Assembly (NCBI GenBank): GCA_041665405.1
Contig: JBAYIZ010000006.1
Coordinates: 407-64,406, forward strand
Origin: Candidatus Magasanikiibacteriota bacterium
GTDB lineage: Bacteria > Patescibacteriota > Patescibacteriia > Magasanikbacterales > GWA2-37-8
DNA length: 64,000 nt
Reading direction: 5' to 3'
In this document: positions 36,448 to 64,000 of the stretch, piece after piece
How positions within the stretch are numbered: position 1 is the first letter of the stretch
Layout: each line of letters opens with the position of its first letter
Program-made: the position numbers and the translations under genes
The notes under the pieces: model-generated
Databases searched by the model: none
The model's input: the letters and a program-made list of their open reading frames with translations, nothing else
What the model was told of the DNA's origin: nothing

Positions 36448-37842
36448 TTAGATATTATTGATATATAAACGCTGTCTTATTAATTCTAGTTCTTGTTTTA
36501 GTTTTAAATCATTATCTATTTCTTTGGTAATTTTTTCGTTGGCATGCATCGCTGTGGTGTGATCGCGTCCGCCCAGCTCATCGCCAATGGAAGGGAAAGA
36601 CATTTTAAGATCATTACGCAAAATATACATAATAATCTGGCGAGGATAAGAGAGCTTCTTTTCTCGGCTTTTACCACAAACATTTTCGGTGGAAACATTG
36701 AAAAAGGTGCAAACAGTCTCTATGGTCTGTTGTGATGTGACTGAACGTCTAGCCGAAGCAGAATCAAAACTAGAAAGAATTGATTTTACTGATTCGGCTG
36801 TCGGGGCCATATTTTTTAATTGATGATAAGCAATAATTTTATTTAGGGCGCCTTCAAGCTCACGAATGTTGCTCTGAACAATAGTAGCAACTGTATTTAG
36901 GGTTTTGTCGTCCAAAACAAAATTCTTTTCTTGGCACTTTTTGCCCAAAATAGCGACACGTGTTTCAAAATCAGGGGCAGAAACATCCACAATCATTCCC
37001 CACTCGAAGCGAGATTTGAGGCGATCCTCAAGGGCAGGGATGGCTTTTGGTGGGCGGTCAGAAGTTAAAATTACCTGCTTGTTTGCCTGGTGGAGCTCGT
37101 TAAAAGTATGAAAAAACGATTCTTGGCTGGCATCTTTGCCAGCGATGAACTGAATATCATCAATTAACAAAGCGTCGATAGTACGATAGCGGTTTTGGAA
37201 GTCTCTCGCTCCACCACTACGCAAAGAAGTAATAAAATCGTTGGTAAATTTCTCAGCACTAACATACAAGATATTGGTTTGAGGGTTTTTTTTCAACAAT
37301 TCATTGCCAACCGCCTGTAAAAGATGGGTTTTCCCCAAACCTACACCACCGTAGATAAACAGTGGATTGTAGGCCTCACCAGGACGGTCTGCCACTGCCT
37401 TGGCGGCGGTGAAAGCCAATTCGGAGCCTTTGCCAACCACAAAACTATCAAAATTGTATTTTGGGTTAATGGTAAATCCATGAGAAGCGACAGATTGGTG
37501 ACTAGTTTGTTGAGAGTATGAAGGTGTTTTTTCGTTTTCATGAGATACCGACGGGGAAGGAGGGGTGTTTATTGGTTGTTCCACAACATTTTTGATATTT
37601 TCGATCTTGTATTCCATCCTTCTAATAGGAAGGGCGGTGACCCTCTCTAAAGATTGGATGATTTGGTGGTGGTGTTTTTTTTCAATCCACGCCTGATTAA
37701 AGGTGTTTGGGACGCAGACAATAACATGGCCTTCTTGAAAACTAACAATACCAGTATTTTTGAACCAGGTGTTAAAATTCGCTTTGGAAATGGTTAATTC
37801 TAATTCAGATAAAACAGCCTGCCAAATTTCATTATTAGTCAT
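36448..37842 (-). CDS. dnaA: chromosomal replication initiator DnaA
   Basis: Walker A GGVGLGKTHLL and the C-terminal DNA-binding domain. Confidence 0.95.
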   Translation of the reverse strand: MTNNEIWQAVLSELELTISKANFNTWFKNTGIVSFQEGHVIVCVPNTFNQAWIEKKHHHQIIQSLERVTALPIRRMEYKIENIKNVVEQPINTPPSPSVSHENEKTPSYSQQTSHQSVASHGFTINPKYNFDSFVVGKGSELAFTAAKAVADRPGEAYNPLFIYGGVGLGKTHLLQAVGNELLKKNPQTNILYVSAEKFTNDFITSLRSGGARDFQNRYRTIDALLIDDIQFIAGKDASQESFFHTFNELHQANKQVILTSDRPPKAIPALEDRLKSRFEWGMIVDVSAPDFETRVAILGKKCQEKNFVLDDKTLNTVATIVQSNIRELEGALNKIIAYHQLKNMAPTAESVKSILSSFDSASARRSVTSQQTIETVCTFFNVSTENVCGKSREKKLSYPRQIIMYILRNDLKMSFPSIGDELGGRDHTTAMHANEKITKEIDNDLKLKQELELIRQRLYINNI

Positions 37843-44157: not shown

Positions 44158-44330
44158 ATATGTATGATTAAAAATACTTCGCAATATTATCTTAAAACAC
44201 AAAAAAAGTCAATTTTATGGCTGTGGTATTGCTTTTTTGAGGATGTTGGTGTATATTTTTTAAATCCACCCGTGGCCAGGTCGTGTTATATAGACACAGC
44301 CTCGGCGACTATAGCGAAAGAGGGGAAACC

Positions 44331-44529
44331 ATGGCGCGAGCCAAACCGGCAACGGACACGTGTTGAGGTACATGTTCGATTCCAGTTCAACCTCAGGCCG
44401 CAACAACGGGCTGAGGAGGCCACGCAGAAGGCCAAGAAGTGGCAGAGGGACAACCCGGGCTGGGGCTGTGATCCCAACCCCACGACGATCGGCAACGGCT
44501 ACGCTACCTTCAGGGCTCGTCGCACCTGA
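44331..44529 (+). pseudogene. GC island 3: small GC-rich ORF apparently frameshifted (SD+ATG at 44331 gives 11 aa; the high-GC3 frame continues to TGA 44527-44529)
   Basis: Good RBS AGAGGGG-6-ATG. The long ORF with GC3 bias (EVHVRFQFNLRPQQRAEEATQKAKKWQRDNPGWGCDPNPTTIGNGYATF...) is in the +1 frame relative to that ATG and has no start codon of its own. Confidence 0.25.
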
Positions 44530-44667
44530 CGACGATCAACCTCTTCGACGCACACCCCCAGTCGAGCACAAGTTGCTCCTGGGGGCGGGGCTTAGATGAA
44601 ATTATCCTTCCTGTCCTAAGTAGAAAAAATATTTTCTTTTTAGGACAAGGATAATTTCTTAAAATAA

Positions 44668-48453: not shown

Positions 48454-48482
48454 TTGACTTTGTGTTTTTTATCAAGTAAAAT
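48454..48482 (+). promoter_or_regulatory. promoter TTGACT-17-TAAAAT reading into GC island 4
   Basis: AT-rich host-type promoter; the GC-rich leader begins directly after the -10. Confidence 0.45.
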
Positions 48483-48576
48483 ATTTTTGTGTCCCAAACG
48501 ACCGACGGTTCGCCGTTCGGTCACAACGACCACTTGCACCGCTCATCGGTGGTGGTCTCGAAAAGGAGAGAGAGCC

Positions 48577-48798
48577 ATGCGTGTGCTTCCCTCGATCCTG
48601 AACCAGAGCCGGAGACGGAGCGACAATTCCGCCGATTGCGGGCAGGTCGCGAGCTCCGAGGCCGACTTCATCCACAGGCAACTGCTCGAGCATGGCTTCT
48701 GCTCGGACATGAAGGAGGGCGCCGTCGGCACCGCCAACATGGTCGGCATCGTCTGTTCGACCGCGGCCGGCCGCGGAGCAGTAGTCCTCCTGGTGTAG
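48577..48798 (+). CDS. small GC-rich protein (73 aa), hypothetical; GC island 4
   Basis: Strong SD AAAGGAGAGAG-5-ATG. About 65% GC with high GC3. Sequence MRVLPSILNQSRRRSDNSADCGQVASSEADFIHRQLLEHGFCSDMKEGAVGTANMVGIVCSTAAGRGAVVLLV. The longer overlapping track ORFs are GC artefacts. Confidence 0.5.
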   Translation: MRVLPSILNQSRRRSDNSADCGQVASSEADFIHRQLLEHGFCSDMKEGAVGTANMVGIVCSTAAGRGAVVLLV

Positions 48799-48827
48799 GG
48801 CTCAGCTTCGTACGAGACAACCAGTGC

Positions 48828-48881
48828 GGCCGGACCGGGAGCTCCTTCGGGGGTTTCTGGTCCGGCCGTCGTTTCCTTTTT
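48828..48881 (+). terminator. GC-rich intrinsic terminator of island 4 (GGCCGGACC...GGTCCGGCC + T-run)
   Basis: 9-bp GC stem enclosing a second hairpin, followed by TTTCCTTTTTATT. Confidence 0.6.
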
Positions 48882-48962
48882 ATTATATTTAATACTCAAA
48901 GCGGGTATTTTTTTATTGCTCAAAAAAGGGTTTGCGTGTAAAATAAGAACGAATAATATTTT

Positions 48963-51683: not shown

Positions 51684-53282
51684 TTATTTTTTTATACTTC
51701 TCAACATTATTCTTTTAAAATCTTGCGCAATTTCATAACGCAAGCCTTTTCTATTTAAGTTAACCTTGTTTCTAAGAGTTTCTAAGTATGTTTTATGTTC
51801 TGAACTTGTTAAGTATTCTCGCATGATTTCATCCCTTAATTTTGCCCAATCCTCAGAGTTTTTAAGCCATTGTTTTTCTAGAGGGACACCTAATGTTTTG
51901 TACATTTTTGCTGGATCCATTACGCTATGCATAGTATCATGTTTTCTAAAAAGTTTTGGATTCTCTCGGGCGTTTTTTTCTTTTTCAAACATGTTACTAT
52001 ACATACCAAAATCGATAGTTCCAACGATAGGTGTCCAAATATTTATACGGTAGTTGGTTTGAGGATTTTTTTTCATAAATGTAAGCATGGTCTTCTTTAT
52101 TTCATCTTTTGTATATCGAAAATGTTCGGGTAACCCTAAGATTAGCAAGGTTCTCACCATGAGAAATTTTTTTGCAGAATTAATAAACTCTGTAGCCACT
52201 TCAAGACTATCGCCTTTTGCTAAATCTTTTCTATTGCCGATAACATCTTCTACACCAACGGCAATTTCAATACAGCCAGCTTCAGCCATTTCTTTAAATT
52301 TTCTTAAACCCTCAAACTGCTTGACGCTCATAAAAGCAACCCACCCCATCTTATTTTTATGTTGCTGATTGAAGTGTTTCATAAAATTTATAAAATCTTC
52401 AAAGTGTTTCGGGTTGGCATTTAGTAAGGCATCACGTACAAAAACAAAATCCTTACCTTGTTTATAAAGTTTTTTTATTTCATTTTTGGCTGTGTCAAGA
52501 CAAGACACATATCCACCATAAAAAGAATCACTAGTGCAGAAAGTGCATTTATGAATACATCCGGCGCTAGTAGCTGTCGAACCGGCATTTTTGAAGTGTT
52601 TGTCTAATTCTAAAAAAGGCATTTTATTTATTTGAGAGCCATCGGTAGAAGCCGCTACAGGTATCAATATCTCAAGAGCATTGTTTTCTGTTAGCCGAGG
52701 AAAATTTTTACCAGTTTTTTTAGTGTTTTCAACAATACATAAATTTGTGTTTGTATCCTTTGTTGTATACGCAATTGAGCCTATTTTTTTCAAAGGAACC
52801 CCTAACGATAGAGCCAACATTGGCAATTCTCCTTGTCCGGTACAACAAATATCTATCCCAGTAATTTCTGGGTGTTGTAAAATCCATTTATAATCAAGCG
52901 CAAAATGTTCAGCCCCTCCGATTACTGTTTTTTGAGGATACTTGTTTTTTATTTTACGACACAACTCAAAGGATTCATTTATACTAGTAGACTGACTACT
53001 AATGCCAATAATTTCGGATTGTTGAATAAGATTTTCCATTGCGGACGTTTTTTGGTCTTGAAGATATGCTATGTCCACCGATATGCCAAATTTTTTTAAG
53101 TATCCAGCTATTCTTTTGATGCCGAGATTTTCTAATCTTAAATGATATTCGTCGGCTTCATATTTGGATTCGGTTATGTTGCCGTCAATAAGTAGAACCC
53201 TTTTTCTGGGTAGTTTTTTGTTGAAAGCCATTTTTTGCAGAGCATTCAATGAAATAATTTGTGTTGTTGTCGAAGTTTCCAT
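51684..53282 (-). CDS. B12-binding-domain radical SAM protein
   Basis: N-terminal Rossmann-like B12-binding-type region. Radical SAM cluster motif CIHKCTFC (Cx3Cx2C); 532 aa. Confidence 0.7.
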   Translation of the reverse strand: METSTTTQIISLNALQKMAFNKKLPRKRVLLIDGNITESKYEADEYHLRLENLGIKRIAGYLKKFGISVDIAYLQDQKTSAMENLIQQSEIIGISSQSTSINESFELCRKIKNKYPQKTVIGGAEHFALDYKWILQHPEITGIDICCTGQGELPMLALSLGVPLKKIGSIAYTTKDTNTNLCIVENTKKTGKNFPRLTENNALEILIPVAASTDGSQINKMPFLELDKHFKNAGSTATSAGCIHKCTFCTSDSFYGGYVSCLDTAKNEIKKLYKQGKDFVFVRDALLNANPKHFEDFINFMKHFNQQHKNKMGWVAFMSVKQFEGLRKFKEMAEAGCIEIAVGVEDVIGNRKDLAKGDSLEVATEFINSAKKFLMVRTLLILGLPEHFRYTKDEIKKTMLTFMKKNPQTNYRINIWTPIVGTIDFGMYSNMFEKEKNARENPKLFRKHDTMHSVMDPAKMYKTLGVPLEKQWLKNSEDWAKLRDEIMREYLTSSEHKTYLETLRNKVNLNRKGLRYEIAQDFKRIMLRSIKK

Positions 53283-53288
53283 AGTATT

Positions 53289-53978
53289 TTATTTTTTACA
53301 CACAATCAAAGCGGTGTTGGTGCGCAAGAATTTGAGTTCGACTTTGAATCCGACATTCTTTAACCATTTAATCTGATCTTCAATTGGAGCAAGATCGTTT
53401 AAGAACATGTGGTGGTATGCCCACTCGGTCAAAGTTTTTTTGTCTGTCGCATTTTCCACCAAGTGATGAAAGTGCAAAGCGTTATTAAGCGCGGCGGTAT
53501 GTTTGTCTTGGTAAGTCACCAAATCTCCAAAAATAAATACGCCGCCTGATTTAAGCAAAGAATATATTTTTTTGAATAATTTCTTTTTACCGGCTGTGTT
53601 TTGGTGATGAATGCCGATTACTGAAACTATTAAATCATATTTAATATCAAATTTAATTTTGGAGTAATCACCATAAACATATTTTACATTTTTGCCAAGT
53701 TTTTTCTTGGCACTGTTTATCATTTGTCTGGAGAAATCCACCACCGTTAGTTTGCTATTTGGTAGAACATCTTTTATTAATTTGCTAGTAAGACCAGTAC
53801 CAACTCCAAGATCCAACATTTTAATATTTTTGTTCACAAAAGCTTTTTTTGCGTAATTCAAAATATTATAATGAATTTCTAAGTGGTGCGGAATGGAATT
53901 TACAATATCTCGGTCATATTTGTTTAATGAATAATGGTCGTAATTCAACTGAGACGGTTTTACATTGGTTGTTTTCAT
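53289..53978 (-). CDS. class I SAM-dependent methyltransferase
   Basis: Motif I LDLGVGTGLTS; post-I acidic residue; 229 aa. Confidence 0.8.
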   Translation of the reverse strand: MKTTNVKPSQLNYDHYSLNKYDRDIVNSIPHHLEIHYNILNYAKKAFVNKNIKMLDLGVGTGLTSKLIKDVLPNSKLTVVDFSRQMINSAKKKLGKNVKYVYGDYSKIKFDIKYDLIVSVIGIHHQNTAGKKKLFKKIYSLLKSGGVFIFGDLVTYQDKHTAALNNALHFHHLVENATDKKTLTEWAYHHMFLNDLAPIEDQIKWLKNVGFKVELKFLRTNTALIVCKK

Positions 53979-53980
53979 AT

Positions 53981-55336
53981 TTATGAGGTTATTTTATTTA
54001 TAGCGACGATCAACCGTTCGATATCATTGTTTGTATTGCATAGAGCGATAGAGGCGCGAATTAGGGCTGGAATGGTTTTGACGTTGCCATGTTTAACTGA
54101 ATCGACAATGGCATTATCGTTCTTTATTCCTAAAAGTTTTCGTATTACGTGATAGGTACAGAAACTTCCCGCTCTTACACCGATTCCGTATTCGCTATTA
54201 AGTCTTTCGGCCACTTCGTTGGAATCCATATTTTTTATACGAAACGGTATAACGGTTCCTAATTTTTCTTTTTTAACAAACATTTCTACGTTGGGGTTTT
54301 TCTTTAGTGCATCAAACAGTTTGTTTGTTAAAGTTGATTCATACTGACAAATTTTATCTATGCCAATTTTTTTGAGTTGCTCAAGTGCAATAGCCATGGT
54401 AACCGCACCGATAGCATTAGGCGTGCCTGGATCGTGTGCGAGTTGATTTCTGTATCGCAAGAACTCGCCAGTTTTTGTTATGTAAGGAAGATTACCGCCA
54501 CCAATTTGATAAGGTAAAAAAGAATCAAGAAAGTTTTTTGGTCCGATTAAGAAACCTCCGCCATATGGGGCGTAAAACTTATGACCAGAAGCGGCCAAAA
54601 AATCTATTCCCATTTCTTTCATATCCAATTTGTGATGTTGTAAAAATTGGCAGGCGTCAACCAGAAAATATGCGCCATATCGGTGAGCAAGCATTCCAAT
54701 TTTTTTAATATCAGGACAATATCCCGTAACATTTGAAGAAGCAGTAAGAACTAATACTTTGATATGATTTTTTTTGAGTAAATTTTCTATTATGTCTAAA
54801 TCAAATTCAAAATTTTCATTAACATCATATTGTAATACTTGGCGACGTCCTAAGTATTGAATTTGTTCGTTGACGCTATCCATTTCTCCAAAAGTATTTT
54901 GTTGTCCACCCAAAGCTTTGATACCTTCAGATTTTATCCAAGGCAACCAAGATGAACTATGCTCAATAGACGACACAGCGATTTTTCCTTTTAGGAAAGA
55001 AAAAAAGTGGGCGGCTGTATTGATTGCCCCAGTAGTATTATTGGTAAACAAAACATATGAATCAGACGGAGCATTAACAAAGGATTTGATTATCTCGCGA
55101 CTGTTTTCATATACATCGGTGGAGATTTTTGATTTTTTCCCCGCGCCACGATGTACCGATCCGTAGCTAGTTATGTATTTTGATAGTCCGCGTTCGACTG
55201 TTTTAAGGGGAGGAGTGGTGGCAGCATTGTCCAAGTTCACATAATCAACTTTTCCTAAAATTGAGGTTGTGACTGCGTATTTTAGGATTTTGGTTGAAAA
55301 CAGTTTGGTAGGGTCAATTTGGCTTGGTTTGTTCAT
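53981..55336 (-). CDS. class V aminotransferase / cysteine desulfurase-family PLP enzyme
   Basis: YVNLDNAATTPP N-terminus, NTTGAINTAA, PLP-lysine motif ASGHKFYAPYGGG. Confidence 0.8.
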   Translation of the reverse strand: MNKPSQIDPTKLFSTKILKYAVTTSILGKVDYVNLDNAATTPPLKTVERGLSKYITSYGSVHRGAGKKSKISTDVYENSREIIKSFVNAPSDSYVLFTNNTTGAINTAAHFFSFLKGKIAVSSIEHSSSWLPWIKSEGIKALGGQQNTFGEMDSVNEQIQYLGRRQVLQYDVNENFEFDLDIIENLLKKNHIKVLVLTASSNVTGYCPDIKKIGMLAHRYGAYFLVDACQFLQHHKLDMKEMGIDFLAASGHKFYAPYGGGFLIGPKNFLDSFLPYQIGGGNLPYITKTGEFLRYRNQLAHDPGTPNAIGAVTMAIALEQLKKIGIDKICQYESTLTNKLFDALKKNPNVEMFVKKEKLGTVIPFRIKNMDSNEVAERLNSEYGIGVRAGSFCTYHVIRKLLGIKNDNAIVDSVKHGNVKTIPALIRASIALCNTNNDIERLIVAINKITS

Positions 55337-55485
55337 ATATGCTATTTGTTATTAAATAACGCGTTATAATAGCATTTTTTACACATTCCGTCAATCATTT
55401 GGGACACACAAACTTGACAAAAGATAGTAAATAAGCTAAAATACAGAATATATTATTCCGTGTCGTAAATTATTGACAACTAAAT

Positions 55486-56220
55486 ATGGAAAATTTGAAT
55501 ATTCTAAAAGAACTCGGTTTAGACGACCAAGAAGCGAGTGTATATATGGCTTTATTAAAATTGGGTGGATCTCAAGCCAGTGTTGTAGCCAAAGATGTTG
55601 GCATTAAACGGACAACAGTTTACCCTGTTTTGCAGGCGTTGGCGGCCAAAGGGATGGTAAATGTTTATTTTCGAAAAAACCGCCATTTCTATTATGCTCA
55701 AAAACCAAATAGAGTGGTGGGTATTTTCAAAAAGAAAATAGAATCATTTGAAAGTATTATTCCAATGTTGGAACTAGTTGAAAAAAAACAAGTGATGGCC
55801 ACGGGTTTGCGCTTTATTGAAACAGTTGAAGAATTAAAACAATTTTATAACGGAATTTTAGATGAGTATAAAGGGAAGCAATATCTGGCAATTGGAAATA
55901 CGGCGGCATGGGAGGGATTGGAACCAGAATTTTTTGTAAACTTTCGTAGACAAAGAGCAGAAAATAAAATTAAAACGAAATTACTATTAACATTTAATTC
56001 TGTCGAAATAAATCCAATAGAAACCTCGCTATTAAGAGAGTGGAAATATCTTCCTGAAAAATATAAATTTCAAAGTACGATAGATATTTTTAATGATAAA
56101 ATTTTGATTGTGAGTCCGGAGCTAAGTTCGTTGGCGGTGGTGATCGCGGTGCCGGCGATGACGGATATTTTTAAATCTGTTTTTGAGATGTTGTGGCAGA
56201 TGTTGCCGGAGGTGAAATAA
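55486..56220 (+). CDS. TrmB-like winged-helix transcriptional regulator (short paralog, 244 aa)
   Basis: N-terminal LKELGLDDQEASVYMALLKLGGSQASVVAKDVGIKRTTVYPVLQALAAKGMV matches the TrmB wHTH. Divergent from the aminotransferase operon. Confidence 0.7.
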   Translation: MENLNILKELGLDDQEASVYMALLKLGGSQASVVAKDVGIKRTTVYPVLQALAAKGMVNVYFRKNRHFYYAQKPNRVVGIFKKKIESFESIIPMLELVEKKQVMATGLRFIETVEELKQFYNGILDEYKGKQYLAIGNTAAWEGLEPEFFVNFRRQRAENKIKTKLLLTFNSVEINPIETSLLREWKYLPEKYKFQSTIDIFNDKILIVSPELSSLAVVIAVPAMTDIFKSVFEMLWQMLPEVK

Positions 56221-56226
56221 TTAAAA

Positions 56227-56260
56227 CAAAAAACCGATTGCAATATGCAGTCGGTTTTTT
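56227..56260 (+). terminator. conserved intrinsic terminator AAAAAACCGATTGCAATATGCAGTCGGTTTTTTT (family shared by TrmB paralogs)
   Basis: 8-bp stem with a G-U pair plus T-run. Near-identical copies at 61128-61162 and 63041-63076. Confidence 0.65.
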
Positions 56261-56269
56261 TAGTTTATT

Positions 56270-57910
56270 TTACTCAATAAAAAGATTTTCCGTAGAATAA
56301 TTATTTTTTATTAATTTATCATTTATTAAAACTTTTATAATTTCATCAACCACTGAATTAAAATCATCTGGAATTGTATCAAAGAATTCTATCTTTTTTA
56401 ATGATTCGGTTAATTCGCGCTCAGGTATCCCAACATGAGATGAGGCAATATTTATTACCTCTTTTTCTTGTTTTTTCCATATCGCGACGGATTGATTCCA
56501 CACCTTCTTAATTTTTTCAATCTCTTTGGTTTTTTGTTGTAGTAATTTATTGTTTACAATCAATACATCATATAGGATAGGATAATCGTTTGTGGTTTTT
56601 AAAATATTTATATTTGAAAGTTCAAGCGCTTTTTCAAGCCATGGCTCCCAAATAATTCCAGCTTCAATATTACCCGCGATAATTCCAGCTCCAATTTCAG
56701 AGCATTGCATATCTTTAATTTTTACATCTTTAGAGGTCATCCCTTCTTTTTGGAGAATATATGAGAGAAAAAATTCCGCCACCGATCCTTTTTCGAGTCC
56801 TATGGTTTTACCTTTTAATTCAATTACGGATTTTATATTTGACTGTGCAACTAACGCATCGCCACCGACGGAGCGATTCAATACCTTTACTATTCTAAGA
56901 TCTGTTATTTTTGAGTGTAATTCGATGGCTTTATCTAGGGTAACATTTATTGCGTCTAGCTTTCCTTGCTCCCACAGCTCAACTTTTTTCTTGTTATCTT
57001 CAAAATTGATTTGTTCCACATCAAGCGACTCGTCGATAAACAGACCGCTATCTTTTGCATAGTAAAGGGGGGTGTTTCCAGACCAAATATATAATCCCAT
57101 TTTGAAAACATCAGTATCAGTAACAATCCCTTCTTCCAAGCTCGCCTTGATTGATTCTGAACGAATAATGTAACTGATGAACTTTTTTAGTTTTATAAAA
57201 TCTTCATGGAATCTGATTTCAGGTTTTCGTGGTCGTTTGATATTTACTTTTACTACCTGTTTGACAGTTCCTGGATTTAGTCCTAAGACAATAATTCTAT
57301 CCGCTAAGTATATTGCTTCATCAATGTCATGGGTGACTAAAATCATTGTTTTTTGTTCTTCTTCCCATAGTCTTGCTAAAAATTCTTGCATTTGAGATCT
57401 CGTTTGTACATCAAGAGCGCCAAAAGGTTCGTCAAATGCAATTAGGTCAGTCTGTTGTGCTATTGCTCTGGCAATAGCGATTCTTTGTTGCATGCCTCCT
57501 GAAAGCTTGTTGGGGAAATAATCTTTGACCTTGTAAAGGCCAACTCGTTTAAGTAATTTGTTAGTTTCAGTACGTACTTCAGTCTCAGACATATTTTTAC
57601 CGTAAAATCCAATGGCAATATTTTCGAAAACATTCAACCAAGGAAAATTAGAGTATTGCTGAGAAACTAATGCAATTCTATTATTTTCTAAATATTTGGA
57701 GCTGTCTAAACCATTGATTTTTATATTTCCTTCGAATACAGTGTCCAAACCTGTTACGCATTTTAAAATAGTGCTTTTACCTGAGCCGCTTGGGCCAACT
57801 ATACACACTATCTCCCCCTTTTTTATATCAAAAGAGATATCATTTATTGCGATAAAAGATTTATTTTCGCGATCATAATAATGTTTAGTTAGTTTGTGGA
57901 CTTCAATCAT
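56270..57910 (-). CDS. ABC transporter ATPase (NitT/TauT family) fused to a C-terminal NMT1/THI5-like domain
   Basis: Walker A GPSGSGKST, signature LSGGMQQR, Walker B IAFDEP. An extra 300-aa C-terminal periplasmic-binding-like domain. Start set to ATG 57910, 5 nt after the permease stop. Confidence 0.8.
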   Translation of the reverse strand: MIEVHKLTKHYYDRENKSFIAINDISFDIKKGEIVCIVGPSGSGKSTILKCVTGLDTVFEGNIKINGLDSSKYLENNRIALVSQQYSNFPWLNVFENIAIGFYGKNMSETEVRTETNKLLKRVGLYKVKDYFPNKLSGGMQQRIAIARAIAQQTDLIAFDEPFGALDVQTRSQMQEFLARLWEEEQKTMILVTHDIDEAIYLADRIIVLGLNPGTVKQVVKVNIKRPRKPEIRFHEDFIKLKKFISYIIRSESIKASLEEGIVTDTDVFKMGLYIWSGNTPLYYAKDSGLFIDESLDVEQINFEDNKKKVELWEQGKLDAINVTLDKAIELHSKITDLRIVKVLNRSVGGDALVAQSNIKSVIELKGKTIGLEKGSVAEFFLSYILQKEGMTSKDVKIKDMQCSEIGAGIIAGNIEAGIIWEPWLEKALELSNINILKTTNDYPILYDVLIVNNKLLQQKTKEIEKIKKVWNQSVAIWKKQEKEVINIASSHVGIPERELTESLKKIEFFDTIPDDFNSVVDEIIKVLINDKLIKNNYSTENLFIE

Positions 57911-57914
57911 AATT

Positions 57915-58664
57915 TTAAATTTTGTATTTGAAGATGTGTGGGTATAGTTTTTTGAAAATATAATCTGAGAAAAAACCAATTATTCCAATGACAACGATTC
58001 CGACATATAAATCCGGTATATTAGAAAACCTTTGTGCTTCCTTGATCATGTGACCAATACCAGAATTTGCGGCAACCAACTCTGCAATTACGAGATAAGT
58101 CCAACACCACCCCAATGTTATTCGGGAATTATTAAATAATTGCGGAGCGATACTCGATAGTTTTATCTTTAGCACTTTATATTTACTAAAATTTAAGGTA
58201 TGAGATAAATCTAGATATTCTTTAGGAACATTATTTAAATCATCTATTACTAATAAGATAAGTTGAAAAAAAGTGCCAATGAATAAAAGTGATATTTTAG
58301 CACCTTCTCCTATACCAAAAAATAAAATTGTTAATGGGATTAAGGCTGGCACGGGTAAATATCTAATAAAGTCTATATATGGCGAAAGTAAATCGTGTAG
58401 TTTTTTCCACGAACTCATCAATAGCGCGAGCGAAAGAGCAATAACAAAAGCTAACAAGAACGCTACTAAAACTCGAAAAATAGAAATACCAATATCTAAC
58501 ACAAAGGATTTTTCTAAAAACAATTTTTGTGTCGCTGTTAAAAAATCCTGTATTGTCGGAAAGAATATGGGGTTTATAAGTTTAATCCATGAACCCAAAA
58601 TCCACAGTGATAATAAAATCACTATGGAAATTGGGAAGATATAATTTCCTCTAAACAGTTTCAT
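57915..58664 (-). CDS. ABC transporter permease (BPD inner-membrane component)
   Basis: Six TM helices, EAA-like loop; 249 aa. Confidence 0.8.
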   Translation of the reverse strand: MKLFRGNYIFPISIVILLSLWILGSWIKLINPIFFPTIQDFLTATQKLFLEKSFVLDIGISIFRVLVAFLLAFVIALSLALLMSSWKKLHDLLSPYIDFIRYLPVPALIPLTILFFGIGEGAKISLLFIGTFFQLILLVIDDLNNVPKEYLDLSHTLNFSKYKVLKIKLSSIAPQLFNNSRITLGWCWTYLVIAELVAANSGIGHMIKEAQRFSNIPDLYVGIVVIGIIGFFSDYIFKKLYPHIFKYKI

Positions 58665-58676
58665 GGAGATATTAAT

Positions 58677-59678
58677 TTACTTATAACTTGTAATTGTCTT
58701 GTCTGATAATTTATCGCTTGATTTTACCCTTACTCCTGCCGAGTTGTTGCTTTCTAAAATATTACCCACAAGATCAAAAGTTAAATAAGCATTGTTGACT
58801 TGTTTCTTGTCAAACAATTTTTGATTATCTTCTAGCGTCAGCCAACTAACTCCTGATTTGATATCATTCATTTCAGCCTTATCTACACCAAAGGCGTCAG
58901 CCATAATTTGCATTGATTCATCTGGATTCTTTTGCCAATAATCGACAGCTGAAAACCAACCATCCGAAATCTTTTTAAGAACTTCTTGGTCGTTTTTAAC
59001 TAAATTTTCTGAGGCAAATAATAAATCGACAATTAAACCTGGTGTATCTGCACTTGAAACCAATATCTTTGCTCCGGCTCTTTTATCTGCGCTAATAGAT
59101 AAATAAGGTTCATAAGTAGCAGCAACATCTACCTGGCTCGCAACAAATGCATTTCCTGCGTCTGCTGAAGGAAGGTCTTTGAAGCTTACATCTGCCAAGC
59201 TTAATCCTTCTTTATTTAACAAATATTGTAAGATGAAATAAGGAGGAAAACCAGGTTCAGCGGCGACTGTTTTACCTTTTAAGTCTTTCAGTTCTGAAAT
59301 GTTACTAGAAACAACCACGCCATCGCCACCATGTGATTCGTCTATAGCAAGGAATCCAACCCCTGGAGGTTCATTACCTTCTACAGCTTGAAAAATATCA
59401 TACGTTGCAGCGTACATGTCGATCTGTCCGCTGTTCATAGCGGCCCTAAGATCACCGATTGATTCAATTCGAACCAAATTTACATCTACATCATTAAAAA
59501 AATTTTTTTCTTTTGCTAAGTATAGCGGTGCATATCCAGGAAATGTAACCATCCCGATAGTAACTGATTTTTTAGATTGTAGATTTTTTGTGTCATTCTT
59601 GTTACTTTGTGTAAAAACAATTACTAACACAACCACGACGAATAGGGCAACGATTGTCCTGATGATTTTCTTATTCAT
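58677..59678 (-). CDS. ABC transporter substrate-binding protein, NMT1/THI5/SsuA-like
   Basis: Signal/TM anchor MNKKIIRTIVALFVVVVLVIVF followed by a type II PBP fold (GYAPLYLAKEKNFF). Confidence 0.75.
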   Translation of the reverse strand: MNKKIIRTIVALFVVVVLVIVFTQSNKNDTKNLQSKKSVTIGMVTFPGYAPLYLAKEKNFFNDVDVNLVRIESIGDLRAAMNSGQIDMYAATYDIFQAVEGNEPPGVGFLAIDESHGGDGVVVSSNISELKDLKGKTVAAEPGFPPYFILQYLLNKEGLSLADVSFKDLPSADAGNAFVASQVDVAATYEPYLSISADKRAGAKILVSSADTPGLIVDLLFASENLVKNDQEVLKKISDGWFSAVDYWQKNPDESMQIMADAFGVDKAEMNDIKSGVSWLTLEDNQKLFDKKQVNNAYLTFDLVGNILESNNSAGVRVKSSDKLSDKTITSYK

Positions 59679-59789
59679 ACTTTTTATGTTAATTAAGGAA
59701 TTATTTGATTATGTGTTTATTGTAGCATTTTTTTTGGCAGTTGAAAAACAGCGGTAGACGTTAACATTGTTAACAGAACATAATATCAC

Positions 59790-59930
59790 AAAACTAAGGT
59801 TTTGTCAATGGTGTCACTTGACTTATGGTGACACTTATGATATGATAGTATTGCCTCTGTAAAGAGCAAAAACAACACAGTGTGTCACTGGTATGGTGAC
59901 AAATGTGACAAAAACCATGTTATTCTATAA
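59790..59930. promoter_or_regulatory. divergent control region with operator-like inverted repeats GTGTCAC-N10-GTGACAC and GTGTCAC-N7-GTGACA-N3-GTGACA
   Basis: The palindromes lie between the minus-strand ABC operon and the plus-strand TrmB-like gene at 59949. Confidence 0.4.
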
Positions 59931-59948
59931 TTTTTATCCACACCATTT

Positions 59949-61118
59949 ATGCTGATAAAAGACCTCCAATCTATCGGTTTTACCAAGAATCTATCTGAGG
60001 TTTATTTGTCTTTAGCCCAATTGGGAGGCCAGGCCAAAGCTGGGGAAATCATCAAAAAGACAGGTTTACACCGAAATATCGTTTATATTTGTTTAGACAA
60101 ACTAATAGAAAAGCAATTATTAACTAAAACCGAAGAACGCGGTGTTACTATTTATAAAACACTAGATCCAGCCCGACTAATGAATGAAATTCGAGAAAAA
60201 GAACAATTAACAACAAATATTATTGAAGAAATTGAAGCATTAAAAAAGCATCCAGACACTCAAGAAATAATTGTCCACGAAGGTTTGGAAGGTTTTAGAA
60301 ATTTCAATCTCTATACTTTGAAAAAAATCGAAGAAGGTGGCACATTGCAAGTGCTTGGTTCCATTGGAGATAAATGGTTTGAATACATGGGTGAAGAAAA
60401 GTACAAAGAATATATAAAAATACAAAACAAGAAAAAAATTAAGTGGGAGATGATTACTTATTTTGATTCAAAACGCGACAAACAATTTATTAATGACTAT
60501 CCAGAATTATGCGAGGTAAAATTATTACCGCAGACATATGATAATCCGGCCAGCATTTATATTTTTGGAGATACAATTTCAATAAATATTTTTACCGAAC
60601 CATTTTCGGTGATTGAAATAAAAAATCGCGCGGTGGCGGATGTATATAGAAATTATTTTAGTTTGTTGTGGAACCAAGAAGTGTTTACCTATCGCGGTTG
60701 GGATGCGATTGATAAAATTTTGTGTGCGAATTTGGAAGATGGATTTACTTATGATGTTTTTGGGGCAACATATGGTGTGGGTACAAAAGAGGAACAAGAT
60801 CGCGTGTTGGAATTTTTTATGGAGAACCACAGAAAGACCGCACACTTTAAACCAAATAGACGATTGATATTTTTTGAACAAGATCGTGAGCAGGCGGCTA
60901 AAGAAGTTTCTCCGTTGGATGCAGACACTCGTAAAAATGTTCGTTTGCGTTTTCTGTCAGACAAATATTTTTCGCCGATGGAGACACATTTGTTTAAAGA
61001 TAAAGTAATTTTAATTTTTTCTTTTGGCGAACCAATCGCGACAGTTTATACCAATCCAAAAATAATTGAAGTTTACAAAAAACAATTTGAGTTGTGGTGG
61101 GGGATGTCGGTGGAATAA
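59949..61118 (+). CDS. TrmB-like regulator, long paralog (389 aa)
   Basis: N-terminal wHTH IGFTKNLSEVYLSLAQLGGQAKAGEIIKKTGLHRNIVYICLDKLIEKQLL plus a C-terminal effector-like domain. Paralogous to 61919 and 63976. Confidence 0.7.
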   Translation: MLIKDLQSIGFTKNLSEVYLSLAQLGGQAKAGEIIKKTGLHRNIVYICLDKLIEKQLLTKTEERGVTIYKTLDPARLMNEIREKEQLTTNIIEEIEALKKHPDTQEIIVHEGLEGFRNFNLYTLKKIEEGGTLQVLGSIGDKWFEYMGEEKYKEYIKIQNKKKIKWEMITYFDSKRDKQFINDYPELCEVKLLPQTYDNPASIYIFGDTISINIFTEPFSVIEIKNRAVADVYRNYFSLLWNQEVFTYRGWDAIDKILCANLEDGFTYDVFGATYGVGTKEEQDRVLEFFMENHRKTAHFKPNRRLIFFEQDREQAAKEVSPLDADTRKNVRLRFLSDKYFSPMETHLFKDKVILIFSFGEPIATVYTNPKIIEVYKKQFELWWGMSVE

Positions 61119-61127
61119 AATTTAAAA

Positions 61128-61162
61128 ACAAAAAACCGATTGCAGATTGCAGTCGGTTTTTT
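61128..61162 (+). terminator. conserved TrmB-paralog terminator AAAAAACCGATTGCAGATTGCAGTCGGTTTTTT
   Basis: Same family as 56227 and 63041. Confidence 0.65.
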
Positions 61163-61308
61163 GATAACTTCTTGAGCTCAACAAGATGTTGGAGTGAATG
61201 AGCGGTCACTACCAGCCGCGTGACTTTTTGTTTTACCGGTAGTCACAAACCGGATGATCCCAGACCCCTCATCAGCGGACCATTGAATTGTCCTGAAACT
61301 TTGCACCT

Positions 61309-61707
61309 CTACGCCTGTTCGCGACAGGGCAGGCATTCGTAGCCCACCCAAAGGCCGTTGGCAAAGGTGAAGTCGAAGTCCCAGCGGTTGTCACCACCGT
61401 ACCAGCAGAGGCTGGCAGTGTATTTGAATCCATTGGGGGCGAGAAGAGTGGTGCCAGTGAGCACGATCTTCTTCTTACGCATTTTCATCGGAATCTGGTC
61501 TTGGTGGTCAAGCAGTTGCTGGCCGTCACGCACTCCAAGGACGCCATTCCGACGACGTGCGCGTTCGCGCAATTCGGAGCCCTTGATGCATTCCTCGCCA
61601 CGCTTGAGGCACGACTCGATCCGGAGCTTGTTGATGTGAAGATCTGCAATTGGATCACAGTCTTCCACAACCTTAAACTCCACCCTGTTCCAAACGAATG
61701 TATTCAC
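61309..61707 (-). CDS. GC-rich Cys-rich small protein (132 aa, GTG start), hypothetical; GC island 5
   Basis: SD AAGGAGGTGA-4-GTG. About 58% GC. Contains CxxC-like pairs (ESCLKRGEEC, ECLPCRE). Divergent from the TrmB paralog at 61919. Confidence 0.45.
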   Translation of the reverse strand: MNTFVWNRVEFKVVEDCDPIADLHINKLRIESCLKRGEECIKGSELRERARRRNGVLGVRDGQQLLDHQDQIPMKMRKKKIVLTGTTLLAPNGFKYTASLCWYGGDNRWDFDFTFANGLWVGYECLPCREQA

Positions 61708-61918
61708 CTTTCACCTCCTTGCGGTTCTGACAGGTTGGTTGCTCTGAAGAGAGCAATTGTTGTTAACAACTCAATAAAATATCATATTTCACTTTATTGG
61801 TCAATCATTTTATCCCTAAAATTAGCAAAAAAATCAGATAAAAGCTGACAAAATTATGTTGGGGGTTGACTTTTTGGCTAAATTCATATAAAATAATCAT
61901 CATAAATAATATGACAAT

Positions 61919-63031
61919 ATGTTAGAACAAAAACTAGAAAAACTTGGTTTTGGAAAAAACGAAGTGAAAGTATATCTAGCTCTTTTTGATTTGGGTAAAT
62001 GTAAAGCCAAACAAATCATTGATAACACAGGTCTTCATCGTAATCTTGTCTACACGGCACTTGATGATTTGATTGGAAAGAAATTAATTTCAAAAGTCGA
62101 GAGTAATGGAATTTTTTTATTTTGGGTTAATAGCCCTGAACTTTTGAACGAAATAATAGAAGAAAAAGCTATAACGGCAAAAGAAGTGATTGAACAATTA
62201 AAAAAGAAAAGCGCCAGTCAACCTCGTGAGATATTAATTTATGAAGGTGAAGAGGGTGTGAAGAAAAGTCGCACCAAAGTTTTAACATATGGAAAAGGAG
62301 ATACATTTTATATGTTAGGAACAAAAGCGAGTTTCTCGCCTTCGATGGAAAAATTTTCAAAGGAGTTTGATTCGCTAAGAATTAAAAAGGGAATTTATTC
62401 AAAAATTTTAGTCGAACATGATGTGAATAAAGATGAACTTAAACATCTTAATAAAATGCCACTTAGTGAAGCCAAGCACCTTCCTCTTGATTTGGAAATG
62501 CCTATTTGGTTTTCAGTTATTCAAGATTATTTGGAAATTGGCATCCCAGGCGTTGATCCACTGATTTTTTCGATAAAAAATAAAGCGGTGGCTGGGGCAA
62601 TAAAAAAATTTATAGATTTTTTCTGGAATCAAGAATCCGAAGTTGTTACAGGCGCAAAGGCTTTACAAGAGATTATGTTGGAATCCATTGATTATGGTGA
62701 GTTGAAAGGTATCGGCGCAAAAGGCAATTTTTTTGAAAATTATCCGGGATTTTTTAATGATATAAAAAAGCGAGCAGTAATGAAACAAGGACTGGTCTGG
62801 AGAAACATTGTTGATCCAAGTATGAAAGGGCATGAGATTACAAAATTTTTGTGGACTAAAACAAAATATAATTTATCCGATACAAAAAATCCCAATGTTG
62901 TTTGGTTGTATGGCCCGAAAGCTGTGATTATAAATTGGGCGGATAAAGAACCTGTGATGTTTGTTTCTACAAATAAGGCGCTAGTGCAAAGTTATAATGA
63001 TTATTTTGAGGAGATGTGGGGTAAAGATTAA
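61919..63031 (+). CDS. TrmB-like regulator, long paralog (370 aa)
   Basis: LGFGKNEVKVYLALFDLGKCKAKQIIDNTGLHRNLVYTALDDLIGKKLI wHTH. Its 5' leader and terminator are duplicated with the next unit. Confidence 0.7.
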   Translation: MLEQKLEKLGFGKNEVKVYLALFDLGKCKAKQIIDNTGLHRNLVYTALDDLIGKKLISKVESNGIFLFWVNSPELLNEIIEEKAITAKEVIEQLKKKSASQPREILIYEGEEGVKKSRTKVLTYGKGDTFYMLGTKASFSPSMEKFSKEFDSLRIKKGIYSKILVEHDVNKDELKHLNKMPLSEAKHLPLDLEMPIWFSVIQDYLEIGIPGVDPLIFSIKNKAVAGAIKKFIDFFWNQESEVVTGAKALQEIMLESIDYGELKGIGAKGNFFENYPGFFNDIKKRAVMKQGLVWRNIVDPSMKGHEITKFLWTKTKYNLSDTKNPNVVWLYGPKAVIINWADKEPVMFVSTNKALVQSYNDYFEEMWGKD

Positions 63032-63040
63032 CACTAAGAA

Positions 63041-63076
63041 CAAAAAACCGATTGCGATATGCAGTCGGTTTTTTAA
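63041..63076 (+). terminator. conserved TrmB-paralog terminator AAAAAACCGATTGCGATATGCAGTCGGTTTTTT
   Basis: Same family as 56227 and 61128. Confidence 0.65.
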
Positions 63077-63168
63077 TTACTTCTTGAACCAAAATGATTT
63101 AGTTCGAAAAGTAGCTGCGCGTCTTTTTGACCGGGACGCGCAACCGGGTGAGAGGGTGGAACCGGACG

Positions 63169-63660
63169 TCACAGGAATGCGATTCCCAGTGACGGCTGGA
63201 ACAGCAACGAGTAATCGCCGCCATCCAGGGTCTTCGCCAGTCCAAATGCCATGGACAGCGACAGACCGTTTCCGATTCCGTAGGCCAGGCCGGTGCCCAG
63301 ACCAACCAAGTCGGAAGACGGCTTGCCGCCGTAACCGACATTGCGCTGGTAGAGCACGCTGGCCTGGGTGGACCAACGATCAGTCAGTCCCAGCGACACA
63401 CCTGCAGAGAGGCGTGGGCTGGGCTTGCAACTGTCGTTGGGGGTGGCCAGCCCGATTCCGCCCGCGATGGACACCTTGTTGGAGACCTTCTCCGACAGCG
63501 AGATGTCGTAGCGGGTGGAGGCCGAGGCGGGGGTGAGCCCGTCCTTCAGGAGGACGACGTAGCCCTCCCGGATGTTGAAGACCGGGGTCAGGGCGCTGGC
63601 CGAAGCCGAGACACCGCTCAGAACCACGGCCACCAGGACGATCAGGGTGGAGATCTTCAT
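63169..63660 (-). CDS. GC-rich secreted beta-barrel OMP-like protein (163 aa); GC island 6
   Basis: Signal peptide MKISTLIVLVAVVLSGVSASASA, Gly-rich amphipathic strands, C-terminal ...LGIAFL aromatic terminus; SD GAGGTG. About 62% GC. Confidence 0.5.
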   Translation of the reverse strand: MKISTLIVLVAVVLSGVSASASALTPVFNIREGYVVLLKDGLTPASASTRYDISLSEKVSNKVSIAGGIGLATPNDSCKPSPRLSAGVSLGLTDRWSTQASVLYQRNVGYGGKPSSDLVGLGTGLAYGIGNGLSLSMAFGLAKTLDGGDYSLLFQPSLGIAFL

Positions 63661-63728
63661 GGGACACCTCTGCAGACCAGAAGGCCTGCCATCTGCATTA
63701 GTCAGTCAGGTTGCATTTGCGAACCCAT

Positions 63729-63776
63729 ACTGCTTTTGCCAGACGAAATAGTTCACAATAGATCTTATGGACTATT
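63729..63776 (-). promoter_or_regulatory. long perfect 16-bp inverted repeat (TGCCAGACGAAATAGT...ACTATTTCGTCTGGCA) in the 5' leader of the island 6 gene
   Basis: It sits between the minus-strand promoter at 63829-63857 and the ATG at 63660. Confidence 0.5.
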
Positions 63777-63828
63777 TCGTCTGGCAGTTGTAAAGAACAG
63801 TGTTACGGGTTATTGATCGTAACAAGCC

Positions 63829-63857
63829 AGTATATCATATATTTGTATACTTGTCAA
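63829..63857 (-). promoter_or_regulatory. promoter TTGACA-17-TATACT (perfect consensus) driving the island 6 gene
   Basis: Reverse complement TTGACAAGTATACAAATATATGATATACT. The homologous position in the preceding unit (61770-61798) reads TTGACC-17-TATTTT. Confidence 0.5.
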
Positions 63858-63920
63858 GGGTTTTTTGGCTAAAACTAGCTAAAAACAAGCATAAATAAGG
63901 ATGACAAAAAAATCATAAAC

Positions 63921-63949
63921 TTGACAAATTTGGCTAATCATAGTATAAT
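63921..63949 (+). promoter_or_regulatory. promoter TTGACA-17-TATAAT for the fourth TrmB-like paralog
   Basis: Homologous to TTGACT...TAAAAT upstream of 61919. Confidence 0.5.
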
Positions 63950-63975
63950 AATATTGTCATAAATAATATGATAAT

Positions 63976-64000
63976 ATGTTAGAAAACGAGCTTTTAAAAC
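63976..64000 (+). CDS. TrmB-like regulator paralog, 5' end only (runs off window)
   Basis: ATGTTAGAAAACGAGCTTTTAAAAC (MLENELLK) with the same conserved leader TCATAAATAATATGAYAAT-ATGTTAGAA as 61919. Confidence 0.45.

Follow-up and report, generated by a model that had tools for sequence, protein, structure and literature searches.

Gene content and extent of the array

The 64,000-nucleotide stretch of DNA analysed here (the window) is from Candidatus Magasanikiibacteriota bacterium (contig JBAYIZ010000006.1, positions 407 to 64,406), and its right end, from position 55,337 onwards, carries a row of TrmB-type regulator genes on the plus strand, each divergent from a different gene or operon on the minus strand. 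The window has a mean GC content of 38% and is contained in a metagenomic contig of 97.6 kb (ENA ERZ27249449 k141_170678) that continues past the window end; its proteins are also annotated in an NCBI metagenome-assembled genome (MAG) of Candidatus Magasanikbacteria (Patescibacteria, or candidate phyla radiation, CPR). According to the gene table of this parent contig and Pfam, six TrmB paralogs (T1 to T6) lie in the interval of about 17 kb between polA and holA, and no further copy was found elsewhere in the 64-kb window. The locus is read here, with a probability of roughly 60%, as a series of local repressor-target pairs in a recombination-prone variable region. The window end is thus probably the left half of a variable polA-holA interval made of repeated two-gene units. 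The genes concerned are as follows.

51684-53282, minus strand: B12-binding radical S-adenosylmethionine (SAM) gene, in the operon divergent from T1 (Pfam)
53289-53978, minus strand: SAM methyltransferase, same operon (Pfam)
53981-55336, minus strand: class V aminotransferase, same operon (Pfam)
55486-56220, plus strand: T1, 244 aa; winged helix-turn-helix (wHTH), long helix and one C-terminal module; PF01978 E=1e-16, 60.9 bits
56270-59678, minus strand: whole ATP-binding cassette (ABC) transporter operon
56270-57910/57979, minus strand: ATPase-NMT1 fusion of the ABC operon (Pfam)
57915-58664, minus strand: permease of the ABC operon (Pfam)
58677-59678, minus strand: NMT1-type binding protein of the ABC operon (Pfam)
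59949-61118, plus strand: T2, 389 aa; two C-terminal modules; PF01978 34.0 bits
61309-61707, minus strand: GC-rich open reading frame (ORF) of 132 aa; six Cys; GTG start; Shine-Dalgarno sequence AAGGAGGTGA; GC 0.55, GC at third codon positions (GC3) 0.67
61919-63031, plus strand: T3, 370 aa; two C-terminal modules; PF01978 40.4 bits
63169-63660, minus strand: GC-rich 163-aa gene; signal peptide; GC 0.63, GC3 0.82
63976-64000, plus strand: first eight codons of T4; 650 aa and four C-terminal modules in the parent contig; PF01978 42.8 bits
Beyond the window, in the order of the parent contig: T4 (650 aa), a hairpin, convergent argG, T5 (about 250 aa; PF01978 47.6 bits), DUF3800 and DUF4325 genes, two GC-rich ORFs of 194 and 201 aa on the minus strand, T6 (248 aa; PF01978 58.3 bits; divergent from these two ORFs), a GC-rich 184-aa ORF and holA

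A description made earlier from the sequence alone (the original prediction) had counted four TrmB-like genes on the plus strand, which are three complete genes and the beginning of a fourth, each scoring higher than the PF01978 gathering threshold; the extension of the contig that it proposed revealed that units continue beyond the window, to a total of six paralogs between polA and holA. Pfam and an ORF check agree with the divergent partners that it listed, both GC-rich ORFs being real coding sequences. Its interpretation of the array as a duplicating regulator-plus-slot module that acquires foreign cargo fared less well, as set out below.

The TrmB-type regulators

The PF01978 gathering score of 25.6 bits was exceeded by all of T1 to T6. 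T1, the sole paralog modelled with AlphaFold2 (AF2), had a mean predicted local distance difference test (pLDDT) score of 81, and its best full-length Foldseek match was to TrmBL2 chains (5BPD, 5BOX; E=1.6e-12), with a template modelling (TM) score of only about 0.4 owing to a differing domain orientation. A profile match to PDB 3QPH (TrmB) covered T1 residues 5-149, and the predicted wHTH, long dimerisation helix and C-terminal domain of T1 give it the architecture of solved TrmB or TrmBL2 structures. No match to the Pfam sugar-binding C-terminal domain of TrmB was found in the array regulators, a PDB sequence search with T2 gave no match, and the NCBIfam equivalogs for TrmB, TrmBL1 and TrmBL2 scored 20-44 bits against cut-offs of 500-650; the array proteins are therefore members of the family and not orthologues of the characterised archaeal proteins.

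T3 and T4 were the closest pair (about 51% identical), T2 was about 35% identical to either, and T1, T5 and T6 were 22-31% identical to the others. The duplications that gave rise to the paralogs are old, and identities of 22-51% argue against recent duplication. T3 was considered as a recent copy of T4 and rejected, given their mutual identity of about 51% and the fact that each is nearer to a single orthologue in a related contig, L007 (60-64%). Of 295 homologues of T1, the best 120 were at least 57% identical to it and belonged to Magasanikbacteria, Uhrbacteria and Liptonbacteria, so that T1 represents a Patescibacteria-wide conserved family with about 60% sequence identity across candidate phyla. 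Duplication as an ongoing process, as the original prediction had it, finds no support in the paralog identities or in the breadth of the T1 family.

Related contigs, all metagenomic, were L003, L006, L007, L008, L018, L027, L028 and P0050. Orthologues of T2 were found in L003 (94%), L006, L007 and L008. The repeated C-terminal module of the longer paralogs ends in F..(L/F)W(N/E)Q and is present in 2, 3 or 4 copies. The module count also varies among the T2 orthologues (2, 3 or 4), which have 389 aa in the window, 524 aa in L008 (3334-4908) and 669 aa in L007 (10001-12010), a sign that domains may have been duplicated and deleted within the regulators themselves.

Control regions and terminators

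The sequences between divergent genes, the palindromes within them and the hairpins that follow the regulators are located as follows.

55337-55485: T1 control region; rightward promoter TTGACA-17-TAAAAT at 55414-55442, leftward promoter TTGACG-17-TATTAT at 55394-55366
56228-56260: hairpin 1; A6-stem-T6, bidirectional terminator-like, between the convergent T1 and ABC ATPase genes
59679-59948: T2 control region; leftward promoter at 59808-59780, rightward promoter at 59818-59846
59811-59835: T2 palindrome 1, GTGTCAC-N10-GTGACAC, over both -35 boxes
59882-59901: T2 palindrome 2, GTGTCAC-N7-GTGACA, downstream of the -10 box
61130-61163: hairpin 2; followed by a conserved structured 3' module at about 61164-61260, on the 3' side of the leftward cargo gene
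61756-61918: T3 control region; leftward promoter TTGACC-17-TATTTT at 61804-61776, rightward promoter TTGACT-17-TAAAAT at 61866-61894, palindromic leader TCATAAATAATATGACAAT
63042-63074: hairpin 3; an identical 34-nt copy (34/34 nt) follows polA in L018
63812-63975: T4 control region; leftward promoter TTGACA-17-TATACT at 63857-63829, rightward promoter TTGACA-17-TATAAT at 63921-63949, leader palindrome

Most elements that the original prediction had described were recovered. The promoters that it named, including the two leftward spacer promoters of T3 and T4, are near-consensus and among the top-scoring sigma-70 matches of the region, the rightward one at 63921 agreeing with the consensus at 12/12 positions. 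The homologous spacer of about 150 bp that it reported for the last two units was found as 76% identity over 156 positions between 61756-61918 and 63812-63975 (score 67, against 19.5 +/- 2.4 in shuffles); no homology was detectable between the upstream regions of T1 and T2 and those of T3 and T4. The leader that it assigned to the last three units is present in two of them, TCATAAATAATATGAYAATATGTTAGAA occurring at 61900 and 63957 (the shared T3/T4 leader is also denoted TCATAAATAATATGAYAAT), and is absent upstream of T2 (59949). The GTGTCAC palindromes that it placed between T2 and the ABC operon are both there and both unique in the window. Its conserved terminator was likewise found in the first three units: the hairpin AAAACCGATTGC-N5-GCAGTCGGTTTT occurs exclusively at 56230, 61132 and 63044, shuffles led to an expectation of 0, and a looser pattern found no further copy in the 64 kb.

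The positions of the T2 palindromes and promoters are invariant in five genomes, in which the T2 orthologues are 48-94% identical, and this strong phylogenetic footprinting marks the palindromes as a candidate operator. The control region of the T3/T4 type, with its imperfectly palindromic leader, is conserved in L003, L007, L018 and L028. Two further repeats were observed in these regions. A palindromic motif, TTGRCTAAAAYTAGCNAA (TTGRCTAAAAYTAGC), is found in the control regions of T3, T4 and T5 (61812-61829, 63865-63882 and L001 15370-15387), and TTGRCTAAAAYTAGC is weakly enriched in the window overall. A 22-nt inverted repeat, 91% complementary with a gap of 6 nt (TGCCAGACGAAATAGTTCACAA / TTATGGACTATTTCGTCTGGCA), lies at 63737-63786 in the 5' leader of about 170 nt of the 163-aa gene; it is partly conserved in L003 and could be an operator or an RNA element.

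Each copy of the hairpin begins 8-12 nt past the stop codon of a TrmB gene, and the T4 unit has a variant of it just beyond the window. The 3' module that goes with hairpin 2 is 89% identical in L018, is present in L028 and folds as RNA with z = -2.8; hairpin and 3' module together, about 140 nt, adjoin three unrelated ORFs. In L003 the hairpin shows one compensatory stem change, from C-G to T-A. Hairpins 1-4 are alike within the genome, in contrast to the divergent orthologous hairpins of L003 and L007, which fits concerted evolution or repeated exchange. A scan of metagenome contigs for the hairpin returned mostly unrelated GC-rich contigs with a similar terminator, only L018 and L027 being relevant, and the hairpin sequence alone is therefore not diagnostic. 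A second type of 3' module, distinct from that at 61164-61260, was observed beside two GC-rich ORFs of 202 aa and 194 aa that are not related to each other; their 3' flanks share a stretch of 46 nt with 76% identity, a GC stem around an AT-rich loop (23217-23259 and L001 17253-17298).

A unit would accordingly be composed of a rightward, AT-rich TrmB gene of native composition, a control region of about 150-270 bp and a leftward partner gene or operon. The control region would hold near-consensus sigma-70 promoters set back to back, and palindromes built on a TGTCA...TGACA core that overlie the -35 boxes or are situated in the leader. In the proposed mechanism each TrmB paralog would bind the palindromes of its own control region, and the bound regulator would keep its own gene and the divergent partner repressed until a signal is sensed through one or more of its C-terminal modules. 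The A6-stem-T6 hairpin would delimit the units and could end the rightward regulator and leftward partner transcripts alike. From position, conservation and what is known of archaeal TrmB, we infer local autoregulation and control of the divergent partner.

Comparison with related contigs

A comparison with sister genomes, which the original prediction had proposed, revealed that whole units or cargo differ in L003, L018, L027, L028 and L007. In L003 the T2 hairpin is joined straight to the 163-aa gene, without a stretch of about 1.85-1.9 kb (approximately window 61184-63035) that comprises the Cys-rich gene, T3 and hairpin 3, and the length of which matches the spacing of 1912 bp between hairpins 2 and 3. 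In L018 two flanks, 89% identical to window 61112-61260 and 63833-64398, enclose just one beta-barrel gene of 288 aa, which replaces the 2.6 kb that lie between them in the window; this contig also contains an additional paralog, T7, with a different GC-rich partner of 128 aa, and lacks the ABC operon, T2 and T3. In L027 a 53-aa GC-rich ORF occupies the T6 slot, where the window strain has the ORFs of 201 aa and 194 aa, and there is no island between T6 and holA. The T3 unit is absent as a whole from L003, L007, L018 and L028, and the number of TrmB genes between polA and holA ranges from two, in the simpler relatives, to six.

Partners differ in their stability. In both L006 and L007 the conserved leftward promoter and operator of T2 face a 223-aa GC-rich gene, of which L003 has a partial homologue at this place; in L008 a gene of the 223-aa type lies upstream of a T2-like gene, with an incomplete promoter alignment. 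The window strain is the exception at this slot, its promoter and operator facing the ABC operon, which is absent there from L003, L006, L007, L008, L018 and L028. Judging from the sequences, T2 with the 223-aa GC-rich secreted protein, and T4-type regulators with a beta-barrel family of 160-290 aa, appear to be old conserved pairs. The arrangement of methyltransferase, aminotransferase and T1 is kept in L018, L028 and the P0050 contig, and this partner of T1 is, on the evidence of gene order, conserved core synteny and not cargo. The radical SAM gene was seen in the window strain only, the operon in L018, L028 and P0050 consisting of methyltransferase and aminotransferase. Unit-scale loss and replacement of cargo between conserved flanks fit a regulator-plus-slot module in a weaker sense.

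The breakpoints coincide with sequence that recurs from unit to unit: some are at or next to the hairpin, others in the control region or the 5' end of the regulator gene. Homologous or unequal recombination between such repeats (hairpin with 3' module, control region with regulator 5' end) would remove, add or replace either entire units or the stretch between two common flanks. With no recombinase gene seen in the parts covered, this is the simplest mechanism, and for the sequence changes observed it is the most plausible one. An integron-like site-specific system, in which the hairpin would act as an attC-like site and a recombinase would insert and excise cassettes with GC-rich ORFs, was also considered. 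It would account for an imperfect palindrome at each unit junction, for a difference in L003 that is close to one hairpin-to-hairpin interval, for identical hairpin variants beside different genes in L018 and in the window, and for cassettes that are small ORFans of atypical composition. However, no integrase, transposase or recombinase was found in the gene tables (window 1.7-23.7 and 51.9-73 kb) or, at 24-43 kb, among ORFs of at least 200 aa, the search being confined to these tables and to ORFs of that size. The A-tract, GC stem and T-tract of the hairpin are exactly those of a bidirectional intrinsic terminator, and the hairpin diverges between species with a compensatory change; each of the cargo genes comes with a near-consensus promoter, a Shine-Dalgarno sequence and a regulator of its own, in contrast to promoterless cassettes; and breakpoints are also found in the control region and regulator 5' end, as homologous recombination predicts. 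Such a system is regarded as quite unlikely, and recombination between repeated sequences is retained as the explanation.

Other accessory genes were observed in the polA-holA interval of the relatives and further along the parent contig, namely a RelB/ParE toxin-antitoxin pair, proteins containing DUF3800 and DUF4325, and a Bro-N/KilA-like protein (L028 10805-11360, L001 16214-17191 and L007 6944-8878); the interval is therefore a general hot spot for accessory genes and not a TrmB array alone.

GC-rich partner genes

The two cargo ORFs of the window and their counterparts further along the contig have GC3 values of 0.63-0.85, with GC3 > GC1 > GC2, among neighbours with values of about 0.3. 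The 132-aa protein matched itself alone among 5.8e9 proteins and had no Pfam, NCBIfam, PADLOC or PHROGs match. The AF2 model of the 163-aa protein (mean pLDDT 63, from an alignment of 2 sequences) consists of an N-terminal helix and 8 strands, and its top Foldseek matches were Ail, NspA, OmpA (OmpA-TM) and OmpX, with TM scores of 0.53-0.57; the match to Pfam OMP_b-brl was weak (19.4 bits, below the cut-off of 28.7). The protein is accordingly predicted to be an 8-stranded beta-barrel resembling Ail, OmpX and NspA. Its homologues end in Phe (L007 ...SYTF, L028 ...FFSF, L018 ...TSNF), as does the 223-aa family (...GRF/GSF), and the window copy ends in ...IAFL. A HMMER search of 1.84 billion cluster representatives found 35 relatives of the 163-aa family, all named members being Magasanikbacteria. 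The organism belongs to a group generally thought to have no outer membrane.

GC-rich intergenic regions in AT-rich genomes are often structured RNAs, and islands of 400-700 bp in an AT-rich genome, together with a 3' module that folds better than shuffled sequence, would fit structured non-coding RNAs here as well. The GC3 > GC1 > GC2 periodicity in the frame of a long ORF, the Shine-Dalgarno sequences and the lack of an Rfam match nevertheless indicate coding sequences and not RNAs: a scan of the entire window at Rfam gathering thresholds found two tRNAs only, none of them in the islands, and ARAGORN found the same two. Signal peptides, protein-level homologues and a ratio of nonsynonymous to synonymous substitution rates (dN/dS) of 0.23 point the same way, and the RNA explanation is considered very unlikely. 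Chimeric joins or contamination by a GC-rich organism could also produce abrupt GC steps such as those observed, from about 0.33 to 0.56-0.64, and a Logan contig indeed breaks exactly at hairpin 3, with the 163-aa gene on a separate contig of 938 bp. This break at the hairpin and spacer is explained by the repeated flanks; the same joins are present in independent assemblies from different samples (ENA ERZ27249449, JGI 3300037810, Logan SRR6484324 and the NCBI MAG), and other species have homologous GC-rich genes in the corresponding slots, which makes an artefact extremely unlikely.

The GC-rich genes appear to have been in these slots for long. Between the window and L003, the 163-aa gene had dN/dS 0.23 and dS 0.60, and T2 had dN/dS 0.035 and dS 0.88; the ratio of 0.23 and a dS comparable to that of the flanking gene indicate that the 163-aa gene has diverged together with its flanks under purifying selection. 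In L007, which is another species (T2 55% identical), a homologue that is 45% identical lies between T2-type and T4-type regulators, with GC 0.63 and GC3 0.84 in a locus of 40% GC and with hairpin and control region at the same places. A distant barrel subfamily occupies the same slot in L028 and L018 (about 26% identical, profile E-value 1e-26). The GC-rich secreted protein divergent from T2 has 223-226 aa in L006, L007 and L008, with the partial homologue in L003. Partner genes have thus kept their positions, and their GC3 is 0.65-0.84 where the genome as a whole has 35-43% GC, at divergences that would erase a neutral foreign signature, and their composition is therefore maintained. We consider it fairly probable that the high GC3 is actively maintained and that the partner genes are native to the lineage and not recent imports.

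The opposite reading, close to the original prediction, is that an actively duplicating regulator-plus-slot module captures genes recently acquired from a GC-rich donor and expresses them from a resident promoter. The partner genes are indeed strongly atypical in GC content and codon usage, their presence or identity differs between related contigs while the flanks are conserved, and one and the same leftward promoter and operator serves one gene in some strains and another in others. But searches of 5.8e9 and 1.84e9 proteins found no homologue in a donor, and the 163-aa and 223-aa genes have kept their slots and their GC-richness where the regulators are 48-60% identical, at which point amelioration should have erased the signature. 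The dN/dS of 0.23 with a dS like that of the flanking gene indicates co-divergence, and the paralog identities of 22-51% exclude recent duplication. Measured against the usual picture of a genomic island, the composition is atypical, but donor homologues were not found and the genes are syntenic across species. Recent foreign capture is thus unlikely, and the description of the cargo as foreign finds no support in a 163-aa family with named members in Magasanikbacteria only, syntenic with T4-type regulators and under purifying selection. Scans of viral contigs found no relatives of the 163-aa family or of T3, so that a phage origin is unsupported, and the cargo genes matched no phage (PHROGs) or defence (PADLOC) families and nothing in NCBIfam.

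Several points weigh against the reading as native repressor-target pairs in a recombining region. Clear palindromes were seen at T2 alone, those of T3 and T4 being imperfect and those of T1, T5 and T6 weak or not examined, and the proposed control of each divergent neighbour by its regulator draws on position and footprinting. The evidence for recombination consists of breakpoints in a few metagenomic contigs, the relatedness of which is uncertain (74-89% nucleotide identity), and for most events gain and loss are not polarisable. The beta-barrel model, with a pLDDT of 63, is of moderate confidence. At least four islands with GC-rich ORFs lie away from TrmB genes (10874-11548, 23216-23903, 44251-44641 and 48462-48923), and such islands are not specific to the array. 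The link between regulators and GC-rich genes is an enrichment only, with about 4/9 TrmB-adjacent intergenic regions against about 4/61 others (p = 0.007 in a rough Fisher test on estimated counts). GC-rich islands are therefore genome-wide and enriched in the array.

The four islands away from TrmB genes have 55-58% GC in the 38% GC window, each with a high-GC3 ORF, and are mutually unrelated; examples are an ORF of 202 aa with a signal peptide that ends in ...GAGTF, and one of 73 aa with a strong Shine-Dalgarno sequence and its own terminator. No Pfam or PHROGs match was found for any of the four. A single mobile element behind the GC-rich genes was considered and rejected, as pairwise comparison at the protein and DNA level found no common family or termini, with the sole exception of the 46-nt 3' stem common to island 23216 and L001 17253. 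The ENA gene call over the 163-aa island is a spurious antisense ORF of 179 aa (L001 11079-11618; window 62997-63536, plus strand), and no gene is called in an island between tgt and uvrD. Gene calling in these genomes probably misses or mis-annotates GC-rich genes, which are probably under-annotated in public data.

Most interesting among these results is that small, lineage-specific genes have stayed GC-rich. As a tentative and rather doubtful extension, Magasanikbacteria might hold a pool of small high-GC3 genes, many of them secreted OmpX/Ail-like barrels, each wired to its own TrmB-type repressor, bounded by a common terminator or 3' module and exchangeable between strains and slots, with a GC-richness that is actively maintained and is not a relic of transfer. 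Within this proposal, maintenance would be due to GC-biased gene conversion at a recombination hot spot or to selection on codon usage or mRNA. The latter could be linked to the GC-rich hosts of epibionts; codon usage of Patescibacteria has been reported to be complementary to that of GC-rich hosts (bioRxiv 10.64898/2026.06.21.733656).

Other features of the window

Two replication genes and a pilus-like cluster were observed outside the array.

13.8-21 kb (L030 12146-19689): type IV pilus-like cluster
35048-36172, minus strand: dnaN
36448-37842, minus strand: dnaA

The dnaN and dnaA genes adjoin the minimum of the cumulative GC skew (around 35.5-38 kb) and a stretch of 27% GC at 36001-36500, and mark a probable replication origin. 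Given their position near the skew minimum, the array lies about 18-35 kb to the right of this probable origin; its TrmB genes are all co-directional with replication in the right replichore. The pilus-like cluster encodes a response regulator, PilB-like and PilC-like proteins, several small unknown proteins, a Laminin_G_3 protein and a prepilin-like protein, and could be relevant to DNA uptake or host attachment, and hence to cassette exchange.

Significance and comparison with known systems

CPR bacteria have tiny genomes with few recognisable regulators, and six TrmB-type regulators with footprinted candidate operators would provide directly testable triplets of regulator, operator and target in an uncultured lineage. 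The strain-variable predicted secreted beta-barrels, like the ORFans, may be components of the cell-surface or host-contact layer in these epibionts, and predicted beta-barrels of the outer-membrane type in a CPR bacterium are part of what remains notable. A GC3 of 0.65-0.84 inside genomes of 35-43% GC, at synonymous-saturated divergence, is not explained by ordinary amelioration after transfer; if GC-biased gene conversion or codon-usage selection is the cause, these genes would offer a clean natural test case. In the searchable literature, no description was found of the array or of GC-rich genes in Patescibacteria.

The array resembles integron cassette arrays in that its small, compositionally atypical genes, often ORFans, stand in a row with imperfect palindromes between them, and in a content that varies among close relatives. 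It differs in that no integrase was found within the scope given above, and in that exchange is apparently driven by homology. With variable surface-protein loci and plasticity zones, such as those of outer membrane protein (OMP) allele replacement in Neisseria and Helicobacter, it shares deeply divergent alleles between 89% identical flanks (beta-barrel subfamilies A and B are about 26% identical) and fast evolution under purifying selection. It differs from them in a host group thought to be without an outer membrane, in a dedicated regulator for each variable gene and in the high GC3 that is maintained.

Archaeal TrmB and TrmBL1 bind palindromes near promoters, for example the glycolytic motif TATCAC-N5-GTGATA of Thermococcales, and repress neighbouring transporter and sugar-metabolism genes. 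The array regulators resemble TrmB, TrmBL1/Tgr and TrmBL2 of Pyrococcus and Thermococcus in their PF01978 N-terminal wHTH, in the profile match to 3QPH and the fold match to TrmBL2, and in palindromes that overlap promoters, the half-sites TGTCAC/GTGACA resembling TATCAC/GTGATA; one array paralog, like TrmB, adjoins an ABC transporter operon. They differ in their bacterial host, in a C-terminal module repeated 1, 2, 3 or 4 times, in the occurrence of six paralogs in one array with common terminators, and in having no match to the sugar-binding domain of TrmB.

The closest likeness in arrangement is to divergent regulator-target pairs such as TetR/TetA and those of LysR-type regulators, which have back-to-back overlapping promoters, operator palindromes and a short common intergenic region, and in which autoregulation and control of the neighbour are the expected logic. 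The array differs from these in its protein family, in the head-to-tail concatenation of many pairs, in targets of anomalous composition, in homologous terminators and, for T3 and T4, in homologous control regions. Its architecture is a concatenation of a known kind of element, the divergent local regulator-target pair, built with a regulator family that is unusual for bacteria.

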